Positions 30,333 to 60,505 of a stretch of DNA of 64,000 nucleotides are shown here, piece after piece. This DNA comes from Patescibacteria group bacterium (GTDB lineage: Bacteria; Patescibacteriota; Microgenomatia; UBA8517): contig DATDRP010000001.1 in the NCBI GenBank assembly GCA_035291665.1, positions 146,952 through 210,951 on the forward strand. Reading direction: 5' to 3'. How positions within the stretch are numbered: the stretch's first letter is position 1; each line of letters opens with the position of its first letter. Both the position numbers and the translations under genes were made by a program. Below the pieces are notes generated by a model that was not told the DNA's origin, searched no databases, and worked only from the letters and a program-made list of their open reading frames with translations.

Positions 30333-30505
30333 AATTGGAAAAGTATAGTGAAAAATTCGAATCAAAAAAAATGCCGAGCTAATCTCGGCTTGTTTTCTTA
30401 ACCTAAACGATATTTTACTCTTATTTAAGCTAATTAACAATTAAATTGGTTTTTCATAAACTCCTTTTACATATTTCACTTAATCTTGTAAAATATCACT
30501 CACTA

Positions 30506-30579
30506 GGACGGTTAGCTCAGTTGGCTAGAGCGTTTCTTTGACGTAGAAAAGGTCAGGGGTTCGAGTCCCTTACCGTCCA
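30506..30579 (+). tRNA. tRNA-Val (anticodon GAC)
   Basis: Cloverleaf folds: acceptor GGACGGT/ACCGTCC, anticodon loop TTGACGT, T-loop TTCGAGT. Confidence 0.85.
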
Positions 30580-30602
30580 CATCTCACATACGTTCGATGT
30601 GA

Positions 30603-30893
30603 ACTTGGGATTTACTGTATAATGTCAAAGAATGGTTTGTATACATCCTAAAATGCCGAGACAATACATTCTATACAGGATTAACTACAAATCTTAATCG
30701 AAGAGTTCAGCAACATACTTTAGGTGTATTTTTAAATTATACAAAATCAAGAAGACCGATTAAATTAGTATATTTTGAAATTTTTAATGATAAGCATGTT
30801 GCTGCATTACGAGAAAAACAAATAAAAAATTACAGCCAAAAGAAGAAAGGATTATTAATTTCCATGTTTACTTCGAAGATACAAAGTACCTGA
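30603..30893 (+). pseudogene. GIY-YIG nuclease family gene lacking an in-frame start (degenerate or non-canonical start)
   Basis: Open frame between tRNA-Val and tRNA-Ala translates ...EWFVYILKCRDNTFYTGLTTNLNRRVQQHTLGVFLNYTKSRRPIKLVYFEIFNDKHVAALREKQIKNY..., a clear GIY-YIG (UPF0213-like) signature. The only nearby ATG (30632) is out of frame by 1 nt. Confidence 0.55.
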
Positions 30894-30896
30894 GAA

Positions 30897-30970
30897 GGGC
30901 CTGTAGCTCAATTGGCCAGAGCACTTGGCTGGCAGTCAAGGGGTTGGGGGTTCAAATCCCCCCGGGTCCA
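30897..30970 (+). tRNA. tRNA-Ala (anticodon GGC)
   Basis: Acceptor GGGCCTG/CGGGTCC with the G3:U70 alanine identity pair; anticodon loop CTGGCAG; T-arm GGGGG-TTCAAAT-CCCCC. Confidence 0.85.
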
Positions 30971-31000
30971 CCCAGTAAGATTCATTTTAATAAGAAGAGT

Positions 31001-51076: not shown

Positions 51077-51301
51077 ATCAAAAATAAATAATTATTAATA
51101 ACGATAATGAAGTGTTGGAGGTTTTCAATTGTTGATATACCGGAAGGAATCGGTGATTTGATGTAAAGAAAATCAGCTTATTACCGAAGCAATCTTCTTT
51201 ATTAAAATATTAAATTATATGTGAGCTTGGAAGGATTCGACCAAGTACAACTTGGGTTCATTCCTGAAATCGCTTCCTGAATTCAATTTTGATTTTTGAG
51301 G

Positions 51302-51373
51302 TGATCCCGGAAGGAATCGAACCTTCGACCATCTCCTTAAGAGGGAGTTGCTCTACCGCTGAGCTACGGGACC
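51302..51373 (-). tRNA. tRNA-Lys (anticodon CTT)
   Basis: Reverse complement: GGTCCCG-TA-GCTC...CTCTTAA anticodon loop...GAAGG-TTCGATT-CCTTC-CGGGATC-A. Confidence 0.75.
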
Positions 51374-51386
51374 ATACTCCTCAGTA

Positions 51387-52640
51387 TTATAATTTCCGAA
51401 ACATTAAAATGCCAATATGACCGGGATCGATCCTCGTAAAGAGCGGGTATCCGATTTCGGCATCGATATCATAGCCTTCTATCTTTACAATATACAGATT
51501 ATCCATTTCCCAAATCATCTGACCGGTATTTTTCAGAATCGAAAGTTGGTAAGTCTTATCGTCTTTTTGAATCAAGTCGGGAGTAAGCTCGGCCACCATA
51601 GTTGCAGAGTTAATTCTTTTGGGATTACCGGATTTTTTTAGCATTTTTTGAATTTCCGAGTAAAAATCATAAAAGCTTCCATCAGCCTTTTTGAATGAGA
51701 AAGTATTGAAAGGTTCACTCTGATAATTCAACATGAATGGGGTTACCGCCACTATATTTGGATCTTTTAACCATTTTTCAAATGCCTGTGTATAGTATTT
51801 TTTCAAAACATCAACAGACAAAAATTTATTTTCACCCCCCACATCGTGCGTCCAGCCTGTTTCGGTTATAAATATGGGTAAATTCTTTTTAACGCTCAAG
51901 GTTTTTATAAATTCAATTTCGTTAATATAACCCGTAATACTAACAATCCCCGTTTTATCGGGGCTTTCGGAAAAATTCGGATTTGGATATGAGTGTGAAG
52001 TCCACCCGTCGATATGGTCAAAAATATCAGGAACTTTATCGTGCATTGACTTAATAAAATTTGTTTCGCTCATATGCGTTTTGTTGTTGGGAGAAGATGC
52101 ATCTAATCCTGCTGGAAGAACAAAAAAATCATCATCTTTTCTTTTAAGTTGTATTGAAAATTCTTTTAAGAATTCAGCATAACCTTGAGGATCAATTACA
52201 CCTCCCCATTCAGCTGCATGATTCGGTTCATTACCAACCACAACATACCTATTTTGAGTGACCCAATTAAGAGAGTCCAGGAAATTTACCCAGCCATCAA
52301 TATCGTCAGTTGTCGGTTTCAACCAGCCTGAACCCTCTTGTTTCGTAGCTATTCTTATAATCGGAATAAGATGAAGTTCCCGCATCCGGTCAAAAACATT
52401 CTGCCACCTGTTTACATCCCTCTCATCTGATCTTAGTACCATAGTCACATACCCCCATTCGCCACCGGAAGAATTCACCAACTTTGCAGCATCGATTAGA
52501 TCGTTTTCATCCTGAATATGGATACCGAAAATGTTATTTTCCGTCGAATGCGGATTAGTTACAGCAAAAGTTGATTTATATGATTTAAAAAATATTAGAG
52601 CAGCTGCAATTAATATTATTAATTTGTAAAATTTTTTCAT
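51387..52640 (-). CDS. secreted glycoside hydrolase (GH5/GH53-like TIM barrel)
   Basis: Signal peptide MKKFYKLIILIAAALIFF; catalytic-like motifs VVGNEPN (acid/base) and ITETGW (nucleophile). The track's 110-codon N-extension to 52970 is antisense to the tRNA-Leu genes and was trimmed. Confidence 0.65.
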   Translation of the reverse strand: MKKFYKLIILIAAALIFFKSYKSTFAVTNPHSTENNIFGIHIQDENDLIDAAKLVNSSGGEWGYVTMVLRSDERDVNRWQNVFDRMRELHLIPIIRIATKQEGSGWLKPTTDDIDGWVNFLDSLNWVTQNRYVVVGNEPNHAAEWGGVIDPQGYAEFLKEFSIQLKRKDDDFFVLPAGLDASSPNNKTHMSETNFIKSMHDKVPDIFDHIDGWTSHSYPNPNFSESPDKTGIVSITGYINEIEFIKTLSVKKNLPIFITETGWTHDVGGENKFLSVDVLKKYYTQAFEKWLKDPNIVAVTPFMLNYQSEPFNTFSFKKADGSFYDFYSEIQKMLKKSGNPKRINSATMVAELTPDLIQKDDKTYQLSILKNTGQMIWEMDNLYIVKIEGYDIDAEIGYPLFTRIDPGHIGILMFRKL

Positions 52641-52745
52641 ATTAACCATTATACAAAATCCAAAAGATATAAGGGCGTTATGTAATAAATTCCAACTGTA
52701 TTTGGTATAATACAGGTGAAGTTTTGCCCTTGTGGCGGAATTGGC

Positions 52746-52830
52746 AGACGCGCAGCGTTCAGAACGCTGTCTCGATTTCCGAGGTAGGGGTTCAAATCCT
52801 CTCAAGGGCACTCGATAAACTCGTGCTCCT
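52746..52830 (+). tRNA. tRNA-Leu (anticodon CAG), type II
   Basis: GCCCTTG...CAGCG-TTCAGAA-CGCTG...long variable arm...TTCAAAT...CAAGGGC-A. Confidence 0.85.
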
Positions 52831-52903
52831 GTTCGGGTTTGATAGTGCGAATTAAGGTAGATATTATGCACACAAATCCTCTCAAGGGCACCGTTATTTA
52901 TAC

Positions 52904-52985
52904 GCGCGGGTGGCGAAATTGGTAGACGCGCAGTCTTGAGGAGGCTGTGGAGTAATCCTTGCAGGTTCAAGTCCTGTCCCGCGCA
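52904..52985 (+). tRNA. tRNA-Leu (anticodon GAG), type II
   Basis: GCGCGGG...CAGTC-TTGAGGA-GGCTG...TTCAAGT...CCCGCGC-A. Confidence 0.85.
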
Positions 52986-53155
52986 CTAATACAAAATGAC
53001 GAAAACTTTCGTTGTTTTGTTTTAACGGATAGGAATTGAACCGAAGGTCATGGGTGAGCGAAAGCGAATCCCTGGATACCCTTGTGGTATTCAAGTCCTG
53101 TCCCGCGCACTAAATCGGTCGCTTGGCTCAGTTGGTCAGAGCATCTCGTTTATAA

Positions 53156-53229: not shown

Positions 53230-53372
53230 CATTATTATAGAAAGTCGGGGGAAATGACACCGAGTCTGACTCGGACGAATCCCTCAGCGACTACAAATAT
53301 GATAGAATTTGAAAGAAAATAGCCGAGGTACCCAAGTTTGTTATAAATGTTAAGAATTGGAGGTGACATAAA

Positions 53373-53585
53373 ATGGCAATACCAGAAAACAAGAGCAAAA
53401 TATTAAAAGTTAAGTATATTAGTTTCAGTATACTGCCAGGTCAAGAAATTAAAAGTTTTGAAGAACTTTCAAAATCTGAGCCAGGTACAAGCGTAATAGT
53501 TGAAGGTGGCGGAGATTTGGACTACCTATCTTCAGATTTACAGAATGTTAAAAAAACAAGTGAGGATGATACATCTCAGGGTTAA
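53373..53585 (+). CDS. hypothetical small acidic protein (70 aa) inside a duplicated tRNA-Phe 5' segment
   Basis: Strong SD GGAGGTGA 7 nt upstream; MAIPENKSKILKVKYISFSILPGQEIKSFEELSKSEPGTSVIVEGGGDLDYLSSDLQNVKKTSEDDTSQG; flanked by a tRNA-Phe 5' fragment (53322-53338) and intact tRNA-Phe. Confidence 0.5.
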   Translation: MAIPENKSKILKVKYISFSILPGQEIKSFEELSKSEPGTSVIVEGGGDLDYLSSDLQNVKKTSEDDTSQG

Positions 53586-53667: not shown

Positions 53668-53674
53668 CATTTAC

Positions 53675-53746
<72 letters not shown>

Positions 53747-59897: not shown

Positions 59898-59982
59898 GCC
59901 GAGGTGGCGGAATGGCAGACGCGCAGGACTTAAAATCCTGTTTCTGAAATCAGAAGTGAGGGTTCGAGTCCCTCCCCCGGCA
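59898..59982 (+). tRNA. tRNA-Leu (anticodon TAA), type II
   Basis: GCCGAGG...CAGGA-CTTAAAA-TCCTG...long variable arm...GAGGG-TTCGAGT-CCCTC-CCCCGGC-A. Confidence 0.8.
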
Positions 59983-60011
59983 CACCTGCATAGCAGGTTT
60001 CAGTCTGGCTA

Positions 60012-60272
60012 ATGTACATTGTTTACTTGTTACAAAGCAAAACTAATCCAGAAAAGAGTTACGTCGGTCGAACTATTAAGCCTATTCTTGTAAGATTAGA
60101 TGAACATAATAAAGGTTTAACAAAATCAACCAAACCTTATATTCCATGGAGATTGGTTTATTATGAACAGTTTTATTGTAAACTCTGTTCAGATAAACGA
60201 GAGATTTATTTGAAATCAGGTAGGGGGTTTAGACTAAGAAAATTAATATTGATCAACCAAAATATGTTGTAG
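60012..60272 (+). CDS. GIY-YIG nuclease family protein (UPF0213-like)
   Basis: MYIVYLLQSKTNPEKSYVGRTIKPILVRLDEHNKG...PWRLVYYEQF; begins 30 nt after tRNA-Leu(TAA). Confidence 0.7.
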   Translation: MYIVYLLQSKTNPEKSYVGRTIKPILVRLDEHNKGLTKSTKPYIPWRLVYYEQFYCKLCSDKREIYLKSGRGFRLRKLILINQNML

Positions 60273-60292
60273 TTGAATTCTGCTTTGCAGAA

Positions 60293-60365
60293 CGGAGTGT
60301 GGCTCAGCTGGTAGAGCGCCGCGTTTGGGACGCGGAGGTCCCCGGTTCGAATCCGGGCACTCCGA
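60293..60365 (+). tRNA. tRNA-Pro (anticodon TGG)
   Basis: CGGAGTG-TG-GCTC-AGCTGGTA-GAGC-G-CCGCG-TTTGGGA-CGCGG...CCCGG-TTCGAAT-CCGGG-CACTCCG-A. Confidence 0.85.
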
Positions 60366-60505
60366 CAAGTGAAAATCGATAGTGTCCGGGTTCGATGGTG
60401 CAACTTAAGGAAAAATTATGCACGGCGAATCCCTGTCTGCCGACAGGCAGGCGGGCACTCCGACTGATAGATTTTGTTTTGATATAATATATTTTGACAA
60501 TTTAA

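Follow-up and report, generated by a model that had tools for sequence, protein, structure and literature searches.

SegB of phage T4 is directed by the T-arm motif GGTTCRANTCC and cleaves tRNA genes at their 3′ end; it recognizes a 27-bp site, and enzymes of this kind are approximately 220 aa long with a separate DNA-binding region (PMC2330249). The minimal domain form of the GIY-YIG nucleases is found in the 'Slx1 cluster, non-eukaryotic' group, which has been described as mostly vertically inherited (Dunin-Horkawicz et al., PMC1564403), and the role of the UPF0213 family is not established (PMC7017083). We analysed two genes for putative nucleases of the UPF0213/Slx1 type, the first of which belongs to this minimal group, in a 64,000-nt stretch of DNA from a Patescibacteria group bacterium (Microgenomatia; contig DATDRP010000001.1, positions 146,952 to 210,951; hereafter the window). 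An initial annotation of the window had noticed that the first of these genes (copy 1) is degenerate and lies between tRNA-Val and tRNA-Ala, and that an intact one (copy 2) follows tRNA-Leu. Our results suggest that both genes are probably part of a selfish cassette directed at tRNA 3′ ends and transcribed together with the tRNAs, copy 1 having recently decayed and copy 2 being intact.

Each gene is carried as cargo by a cassette of ~310 nt, which takes up the whole spacer between two tRNA genes on the same strand, in the order tRNA 3′ end, left inverted repeat of ~25 nt, ORF (open reading frame) of ~90 aa, right inverted repeat and next tRNA (coordinates are those of the window, and features are on the + strand unless noted otherwise). 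At the first locus, tRNA-Val(gac) (30506–30580) and tRNA-Ala(ggc) (30897–30972), both called by ARAGORN and Rfam, enclose a spacer of 316 nt with a single ORF. The end of tRNA-Val(gac), a discriminator A plus a C, directly precedes cassette 1, which starts at the very next base. The open frame of copy 1 (30603–30893; HLE48608.1 in GenBank) opens right after a TGA (30600–30602) and closes with the stop codon TGA 30891–30893, and tRNA-Ala begins 3 nt past this stop codon. The translation (TWDLLYNVKEWFVYILKCRDNTFYTGLTT...REKQIKNY...FTSKIQST, also given as ...NVKEWFVYILKCRDNTFYTGLTTNLNRRVQQH...RRPIKLVYFEIF...REKQIKNY...FTSKIQST) has a conserved core beginning at W 30633 and matched the Pfam GIY-YIG model PF01541 with E=1.4e-17 (64.2 bits against a cut-off of 22.6), in line with the initial annotation, which had read the spacer as almost entirely one open frame for a GIY-YIG core. 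At the second locus, tRNA-Leu(taa) (59898–59983) and tRNA-Pro(tgg) (60293–60366), called by the same two programs, leave a spacer of 309 nt with one ORF, the intact gene of copy 2 (60012–60272; HLE48642.1), which encodes 86 aa from an ATG start to a TAG stop and also matched the GIY-YIG model above the cut-off of 22.6 (E=1.3e-10, 41.9 bits), so that the GIY-YIG homology proposed for both copies was borne out. The intact gene had been called a paralog of copy 1; it is present by tRNA-Leu as described, but the two proteins share only 32% identity, and by this measure they are distant relatives from separate lineages and not recent paralogs. A six-frame profile search of the window found no third GIY-YIG copy or remnant. 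In GenBank, both proteins are recorded from a contig of 331,681 bp. Copy 2 has relatives in similar places: P0042, 76% identical and from a Microgenomates genome, is also in a Leu(taa)–Pro(tgg) spacer, and its cassette has the copy-2 arms ACCTGCAGAGCAGG... and ...TTCTGCTTTGCAGAA, and P0044, 64% identical, is located between Leu(taa) and Arg(tct).

A promoter-like site (30466–30494; TTTACA, a 17-nt spacer and TAAAAT, a consensus match only with 10/12 positions) lies 11 nt upstream of tRNA-Val and is the sole candidate promoter for the unit of tRNA-Val, cassette and tRNA-Ala. No promoter-like or terminator-like sites were found on the + strand between the two tRNA genes, and because the only such promoter precedes tRNA-Val, the cassette is probably read as part of the tRNA transcript.

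A profile built from the closest homologs retrieved only two solved structures, both of UPF0213 proteins: 1ZG2 (BH0048, E=3e-19) and 1YWL (EF2693, E=3e-17). The AlphaFold model of the copy-1 frame, with a mean predicted local distance difference test score (pLDDT) of 89.5, showed the beta-beta-alpha-beta-alpha-alpha order of the GIY-YIG topology (strands at residues 2–8, FVYILKC, 13–18, FYTGLT, and 42–50; helices at 21–30, 54–65 and 69–85), in which strand 1 carries the GIY motif and strand 2 the YIG motif. Foldseek ranked 1ZG2 and 1YWL first, followed by Slx1 (7CQ3, template-modelling score 0.61), UvrC (0.50) and I-TevI (0.40). Among the family columns, V, Y, Y, G, H, T and L are invariant and R, A, E and K nearly so, and all of them are present in the window frame; the positions of the GIY Tyr, the YIG Tyr and Gly, and the Arg, His and Glu are kept. 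Homologs are 80–109 aa long with GIY-YIG as the sole Pfam family above cut-off, and both window proteins are accordingly described here as putative minimal single-domain UPF0213/Slx1-like nucleases. No informative match was obtained in PHROGs, PADLOC or NCBIfam, and neither a phage homing-endonuclease nor a defence family was hit. Stand-alone GIY-YIG genes of the same family, ~49% identical, also occur in large Rhizobium, Listeria and Staphylococcus phages (RHph_Y65 and 24 other records).

The inverted repeats mark the ends of both cassettes. In cassette 1, the left repeat (30581–30608; ATCTCACATACGTTCGATGTGAACTTGG) has the layout (A)YCTC/ACTTC, ~7 nt and then TYCRRTGYRAAC, and is conserved in L082, L089 and L015; the right repeat (30861–30896; ..GTTTACTTCGAAGATACAAAGTACCTGAGAA) overlaps the final 11 codons and extends to the nucleotide immediately preceding tRNA-Ala. 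These arms pair at −22.3 kcal/mol as compared with −10.4 ± 2.8 kcal/mol in shuffled sequences (2/2000 as good; z = −4.3). In cassette 2, the left repeat (59984–60008; ACCTGCATAGCAGGTTTCAGTCTGG) is conserved in L090, the right repeat (60270–60292; GTAGTTGAATTCTGCTTTGCAGA) runs from within the stop codon to the base before tRNA-Pro, and the arms pair at −23.7 kcal/mol versus −13.1 ± 2.9 kcal/mol (7/2000 as good; z = −3.7). The cassette-2 arms differ in sequence from all others, and the arms of other cassettes do not pair as well (0/19). The terminal stem appeared in both the minimum free energy and the centroid folds of the two whole window spacers. Across contexts and phyla, the left-end sequence directly 3′ of the upstream tRNA is conserved, as ACTTCGGCAAGCTCAGTGCAAGC in one subfamily, as ACTTCACTACGTTCAGTGTAAAC and variants in another, and as ATCTCACATACGTTCGATGTGAAC in window copy 1. 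The right end is its reverse complement at the end of the ORF, often over the last codons and up to the base before the next tRNA, with the layout GTTTAC, NNYGA, a small variable hairpin (nine different sequences at nine loci) and then GAAGT/GAGAA.

The oppositions in the type-A repeats of 21 loci comprised 378 Watson–Crick pairs, 51 G:U and 18 A/C on the sense strand. In 43 of the G:U cases the left arm contributes the G and the right arm the U, a pattern that fits selection on the sense RNA. For 19 type-A repeats, 85.5% of the cells paired in register, as opposed to 29–41% when the arms were slid against each other. The left arm is almost invariant while the ORFs are 40–60% identical, which points to an added sequence-specific role, and the left repeat is a candidate protein-binding site. 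A scan of IMG/VR with the type-A repeat gave no matches (0), and no miniature copy of the window cassettes' own repeats was found within the window, the two GIY-YIG copies being the only ones.

The association with tRNA genes extends well beyond the window. We scanned for tRNAs 80 loci coding for relatives, with one genome per GTDB species. A same-strand tRNA ended within 180 nt upstream in 47 of the 80 loci, and within 70 nt in 31 of these 47, compared with a chance expectation of ~1% per locus derived from the tRNA density of the flanks of the same loci; the gene was sandwiched between two same-strand tRNAs in 17/80. Eighteen tRNA species were linked to cassettes, and the hosts were mostly Patescibacteria, with Omnitrophota and Planctomycetota in addition. 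Occupancy of a given spacer was patchy, as the Phe(gaa)–Gly(gcc) spacer is occupied in nine loci and empty in the window (6 nt, 53668 to 53675). In a rough neighbour-joining tree without support values, the Phe>Gly, Leu>Pro, Tyr>Thr, Arg>Arg, Arg>His and Gly>Thr cassettes were interleaved. Relatives of copy 1 are P0007, between Val(gac) and Ala(ggc), and P0006 (L089), for which the downstream Ala(ggc) was called and the upstream side is cut by the contig end; the gene neighbourhoods of both differ from that of the window. Between the window and the L082 genome, ThrRS is 48% identical and the GIY-YIG protein 65%, a contrast that fits either a later transfer or tight constraint on a small domain.

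Several individual loci are worth recording. Two GIY-YIG genes lie no more than 1.5 kb apart in L090. In L035 (3001–3210), a Berkelbacteria locus between two tRNA-Arg genes, an in-frame stop follows YILR, giving another decayed copy. In L018 (3001–3225), from Absconditabacterales, the Gly position of the YTG motif has a TGA codon, which is what genetic code 25 would predict. The GIY-YIG stop codon falls 10–15 nt inside the downstream tRNA gene in L001 (489–498), L002, L014 (3259–3273) and L088 (1541–1550).

Signatures of movement were found in a sister subfamily. Thirty loci have an upstream tRNA without being sandwiched, and in 16 of them the element is followed by an exact 17–18-nt copy of the tRNA tail (12–14 nt in two); the duplicated tail always runs from T-loop position 57/58 (GGTTCG|AATCC) to one base past the discriminator. 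The layout is duplication, repeat, ORF, repeat, duplication, and such duplications occurred at nine tRNA species (Glu-ttc, Glu-ctc, Tyr, three Ser, Asn, Gln and Lys-ctt). The duplications differ even among elements with a common left repeat, and the sequence that is duplicated therefore comes from each target. Copies without an ORF, 60–100 nt long, retain these ends and duplications; they follow tRNA-Lys(ttt) in L020 and L077 and are nested at tRNA-Gly(tcc) in L091. The window copies share the left junction of the sister subfamily, that is, the discriminator, a C and then A-Y-C/T-T-C. Other arrangements were seen in single loci: L067 (2970–3652) contains a tandem pair of identical GIY-YIG units, with the same tRNA-Gln tail after each, and in L056 (3278–3368) and L050 (375–490) the tRNA tail and the left repeat recur after the element, repeats that are compatible with tandem or circular intermediates.

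A duplication from the T-loop to the 3′ end of a tRNA gene is, as is generally known, the classic footprint of an integrase, and the footprint itself was observed here, so one could suppose that the cassettes are miniature satellites moved in trans by a tRNA-specific integrase, the GIY-YIG protein taking no part in the movement. We regard this as most improbable, since no integrase was found in or beside the cassettes examined, and the same left repeat is accompanied by at least nine different tRNA-tail duplications, with no fixed attachment site borne by the element.

How might the favoured cassette work? Having no evident promoter of its own, it would be transcribed from the tRNA promoter, and in the RNA the inverted repeats would pair and fold the insert into a closed domain. 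RNase Z acting on the upstream tRNA and RNase P acting on the downstream tRNA would then free both tRNAs together with an mRNA with base-paired ends; both tRNAs would still be released and the insertion would therefore be harmless or neutral to the host. The nuclease may recognize a feature common to tRNA genes, the T-arm plus the 3′ end, and cut there, promoting insertion or spread by gene conversion. If the target is one that all tRNA genes have in common, the range of tRNA species used would be explained, and the two flanking tRNAs would provide ready homology for gene conversion between genomes. The 17–18-nt duplications of the relatives point to nicks that are staggered, one at the T-loop and one at the 3′ end.

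The same evidence can be carried one step further, to autonomous mobile elements of ~0.3–0.4 kb whose sole protein is a ~90-aa Slx1-like nuclease, forming an unrecognized class of prokaryotic transposons with miniature derivatives. The paired RNA ends would let the host process its tRNAs, and the two genes of the window would be long-fixed members of this class, of which one has only just died. Here the nuclease, perhaps as an oligomer, would read the near-invariant left repeat and the hairpin-prone T-arm and place staggered nicks at T-loop 57/58 and just past the tRNA 3′ end, the 17–18-nt duplication keeping the tRNA intact. We consider this broader proposal possible but doubtful.

An ordinary host gene has to be weighed against the selfish cassette. 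According to this explanation, a housekeeping UPF0213 nuclease resides in tRNA operons, the repeats are signals for RNA processing or stability, and copy 1 is being lost as a redundant duplicate. It would account for the relatives of both copies at the same positions in distant Patescibacteria, for the lack of target duplication in sandwiched cassettes and for the G:U-tolerant stem, which points to a role at the RNA level; moreover, one fusion of this family to the tRNA methyltransferase TrmH has led others to suggest a role in RNA metabolism (PMC1564403). It does not readily account for closely related ORFs with the same repeats after 18 tRNA species, for the patchy occupancy of the Phe–Gly spacer or for recurrent decay (copy 1 and L035), and without DNA mobility there is no easy explanation for the tail duplications, the tandem units and the ORF-less copies. 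On balance, a host gene appears unlikely.

The selfish cassette, which we prefer, has a number of results against it. The transposon-like signature derives from the sister subfamily, and mobility of the window subfamily is inferred from it: no duplicated Val or Leu tRNA tail was present downstream of the window copies, and none of the 17 sandwiched loci had a tail duplication (0/17). The suggestion in the initial annotation of selfish or homing elements at tRNA loci gains strong comparative support from the linkage in 47/80 loci, the conserved inverted repeats and the tail duplications and ORF-less derivatives of the sister subfamily; the window copies themselves have no target duplication. 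To our knowledge, a 90-aa domain without a DNA-binding module is not known for site-specific cleavage or DNA movement. The family is described as mostly vertically inherited (PMC1564403), and relatives at the same position could reflect vertical descent alone. In RHph_Y65 (L093, 2480–2740), the one phage record inspected, the gene adjoins an HNH endonuclease gene and not tRNAs. With regard to the repeats, formal covariation in the 19 type-A repeats was not above shuffles (two-sided changes in 3/24 pairs), and arms from within a cassette did not pair significantly better than arms from different cassettes (p=0.08), the latter owing to sequence conservation of the inner helix from one cassette to another; the repeats may act as RNA, DNA or both. 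Finally, metagenome scans gave 0 matches to an empty Val(gac)–Ala(ggc) site and 0 to indel variants of the copy-1 allele or an intact allele.

We then consider why copy 1 is degenerate. The frame 30603–30893 contains no in-frame ATG, GTG or TTG, as had been pointed out and as the ORF listing confirmed, and for this reason it is missing from the mechanical ORF list (20-aa minimum). The initial annotation named 30632 as the only ATG and placed it one nucleotide out of frame; in fact, the 5′ region has two out-of-frame ATGs, at 30622 (+1 frame) and 30632 (+2 frame), and the vestigial start is the former. ATG 30622 opens a 9-codon frame, MSKNGLYTS* (30622–30651), like the MSKHG N-terminus of the intact relative P0007, which starts with MSKHGWFVYIL, is 65% identical and is located between tRNA-Val(gac) and tRNA-Ala(ggc) in L082–L087, contigs that come from ENA, JGI and Logan samples. 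At the DNA level, P0007 begins ATG AGC AAA CAC GGT TGG TTT GTT TAT and the window ATG TCA AAG AAT GGT TTG TAT, and the inferred lesion (30634–30639) reads GGTTTG where P0007 has GGTTGGTTTG, one GGTT unit (4 nt) being lost at a position that is ambiguous inside the repeat. With one GGTT restored, copy 1 reads MSKNGWFVYILKC... and aligns to P0007 from residue 1 without a gap at 65% identity. Because of this gap-free alignment, the best reading is a slipped-strand loss of one unit of GGTTGGTT after codon 5, which would have uncoupled ATG 30622 from the nuclease frame, and the shift is probably a 4-nt deletion relative to ATG 30622, not the 1-nt offset of ATG 30632. The loss of one A in AAA 30627–30629, giving MSKEWFVY, is a less likely alternative, because the MSKNG match would then be a coincidence. 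Copy 1 is thus best read as a frameshift pseudogene. The invariant and near-invariant family columns are all kept in its frame, and therefore either the frameshift is recent or expression is leaky.

In-frame ATG 30597 directly precedes TGA 30600 and cannot serve as the start, because TGA is a true stop under the standard code: 14/52 long ORFs end in TGA, and ORFs that reach 120 aa under table 11 account for 76% of the window. An alternative code in which TGA is sense and ATG 30597 the start was rejected on these two grounds and because read-through of TGA 30891 enters tRNA-Ala. An ENA gene caller did read copy 1 with TGA as Trp, giving a 144-aa protein through tRNA-Ala (P0040).

The initial annotation had left a choice between a frameshift pseudogene and a non-canonical start, and the first option was strengthened by the MSKHG relative in the same spacer. 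Continued expression of copy 1 would need initiation at ATC 30645 or CTG 30615, or a −1 slip at A-AAG 30627–30630 that connects ATG 30622 with the nuclease frame, giving MSKEWFVY.... Every invariant residue of the domain is intact, as such expression would lead one to expect, and TCA AAG would let tRNA-Lys re-pair on AAA with GAA TGG TTT as the next codons, a possibility read from the sequence together with what is generally known of A-AAG slippage. PGAP (Prokaryotic Genome Annotation Pipeline) also called a product from ATC: the annotation of HLE48608.1 (30645–30893) is an 82-aa protein, MLKCRD.... Missing from this product is the W-F-V-Y of beta-strand 1 and with it the Val-Tyr that is invariant in the GIY motif, which makes it unlikely to be a working enzyme, and it is almost certainly not a functional protein. 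There is no Shine–Dalgarno sequence upstream of the CTG or the ATC, no stimulatory element is evident, and a tRNA-Lys(ctt) that reads AAG is encoded at 51300–51373 and should lower slippage. Close homologs all begin with a normal ATG 1–5 codons before the invariant Trp/Tyr-Phe-Val-Tyr. We therefore think it quite unlikely that copy 1 is still expressed by such a route.

Could the lesion be an error of assembly or sequencing, with an intact ATG-initiated gene in the real genome? The source is a metagenome-assembled genome, and a 1-nt gain in AAA 30627–30629 would also restore a plausible protein, MSKEWFVY; in addition, thrS is split into two ORFs in L083 (3574–5319) and whole in L082 (3574–5319) from the same population, by an assembly indel or a real polymorphism. 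However, a second assembly record, the 528-bp contig L081 (ENA ERZ27254860), is identical over 30521–30971, that is, across the whole spacer including the lesion, and diverges outside, its reads being possibly but not necessarily independent of those of the metagenome-assembled genome. Long genes nearby, TypA (638 aa), ThrRS (596 aa) and glycosyltransferases, match their Pfam models from end to end, and two overlapping ORF pairs near the locus are separate complete genes; since the long neighbours are intact, the assembly is not riddled with indels. The better-supported lesion is moreover a 4-nt loss and not a homopolymer miscount. Taken together, these results make an error of this kind very unlikely.

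The window contains other rearranged tRNA sequences. The initial annotation had cited tRNA-fragment duplications in the same regions as consistent with homing, but those in the window lie at other tRNAs and flank neither GIY-YIG gene. Exact tail duplicates are present at tRNA-Leu(cag) (52793–52811 = 52873–52891), tRNA-Leu(gag) (52966–52989 = 53090–53113) and tRNA-Pro(tgg) (60354–60366 = 60452–60464), 61–100 nt downstream of the intact genes and with no GIY-YIG ORF between; they resemble those that flank GIY-YIG genes elsewhere, but the ends of the inserts differ. The inserts between the duplicates contain pseudo T-arms in which the T-loop is broken by a ~27-nt hairpin, GTGCRAMTTAAGG...ATTATGCAC, found in two copies (52845–52871 and 60398–60423), and they share the motif CGAATCCCT (53065–53073, 53276–53284 and 60426–60434). 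To judge from these sequences, the hairpin inserts may be a separate miniature palindromic element that targets T-loops. Fragments of the 5′ ends of tRNA-Val and tRNA-Phe lie just upstream of the intact genes (53126–53152 and 53321–53341), and between the Phe fragment and tRNA-Phe is a 70-aa ORF (53373–53585) with a GGAGG ribosome-binding site and no Pfam match, which may be another small cassette in the same tRNA array. A 527-aa TTG-initiated ORF on the − strand (51387–52970) overlaps both tRNA-Leu genes on the opposite strand, and its real start is probably further downstream.

The pseudogene itself is of modest interest; its value lies in what is apparently an unrecognized family of miniature elements at tRNA 3′ ends. 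Such a cassette family gives the widespread UPF0213/YhbQ group a testable biological role and suggests a part for miniature selfish cassettes in shaping the tRNA arrays of the streamlined genomes of Patescibacteria. It would be a possible minimal insertion system, consisting of one 90-aa nuclease and ends of ~25 bp with a target site in every genome, and it may account for many of the tRNA-fragment duplications and small ORFs at tRNA loci in Patescibacteria genomes. If the processing model is true, it would also be a natural bacterial case of an mRNA excised from between tRNAs.

Within an incomplete coverage of the literature, we found no published account of tRNA-linked minimal GIY-YIG cassettes, and several known kinds of element were set aside as identities. 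A tRNA-targeting integrative island was rejected, as each spacer has one ORF, the neighbouring genes of the related loci include no integrase and the duplications vary with the target. A group I intron or an archaeal-type T-loop intron was rejected because the flanking tRNAs are complete and there is no ribozyme; an Rfam scan of the window and 20 related loci found only tRNAs. By eye, the CUGA...hairpin...GAAA of the right repeat resembles the core of a hammerhead ribozyme, but it is without the required G8 and A9. A published study of tRNA introns in Patescibacteria concerns the anticodon loop only.

Among mobile elements, the sister subfamily, with its order of duplication, inverted repeat, ORF, inverted repeat and duplication and its ORF-less copies with the same ends, is like transposon-type elements and miniature inverted-repeat transposable elements. 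The window copies resemble insertion-sequence-type elements in having inverted repeats at both ends, but differ in having no target-site duplication. The duplication in the relatives is unusually long (17–18 nt) and always covers the same part of the tRNA gene. We know of no GIY-YIG protein that acts as a transposase. Casposons likewise insert at tRNA 3′ ends, but the cassettes have no transposase, integrase or Cas1, only the 90-aa GIY-YIG protein.

Free-standing GIY-YIG ORFs of fungal mitochondria (e.g. at atp6 of Allomyces) enter genes at the 3′ end, and the end that they displace is duplicated. As in the cassettes, the host gene is kept intact by a copy of its 3′ end on each side of the nuclease ORF; unlike the cassettes, these ORFs have protein-coding targets, are larger, contain DNA-binding domains and have no conserved inverted repeats. 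At the level of RNA, mRNAs are released from tRNA-containing precursors in mitochondrial 'tRNA punctuation' and in the E. coli thrU–tufB operon, and the repeat hairpins of the Correia elements of Neisseria are cut by RNase III. The ORF placed flush between tRNAs and the long stem that pairs the ends of the insert are similar to these cases, the processing proposed here being deduced from sequence alone.

As proteins, the cassette nucleases are like the UPF0213 proteins (E. coli YhbQ, B. subtilis YazA, 1ZG2 and 1YWL) in profile, fold, single-domain size and the Tyr, Tyr, Arg, His and Glu residues, but the tRNA linkage, flanking repeats and target duplications found for the cassettes set them apart from known accounts of UPF0213, for which we located no such report. 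Unlike eukaryotic Slx1, which has a C-terminal RING/PHD zinc finger and an Slx4 partner, they have no second domain, and the protein, of 86–96 aa, ends after the third helix. The nearest functional parallel is T4 SegB, which is also encoded by a GIY-YIG gene among tRNA genes and whose cut position is where the cassettes begin. In contrast with SegB, the cassette proteins are 86–95 aa long with one domain and no DNA-binding region, and they belong to the UPF0213/Slx1 branch and not to I-TevI/Seg; the inverted repeats and tRNA-tail duplications of the cassettes are features not reported for SegB, and the hosts are bacterial chromosomes, not phages. By analogy, the cassette may work like SegB, yet it is not a member of the Seg family.

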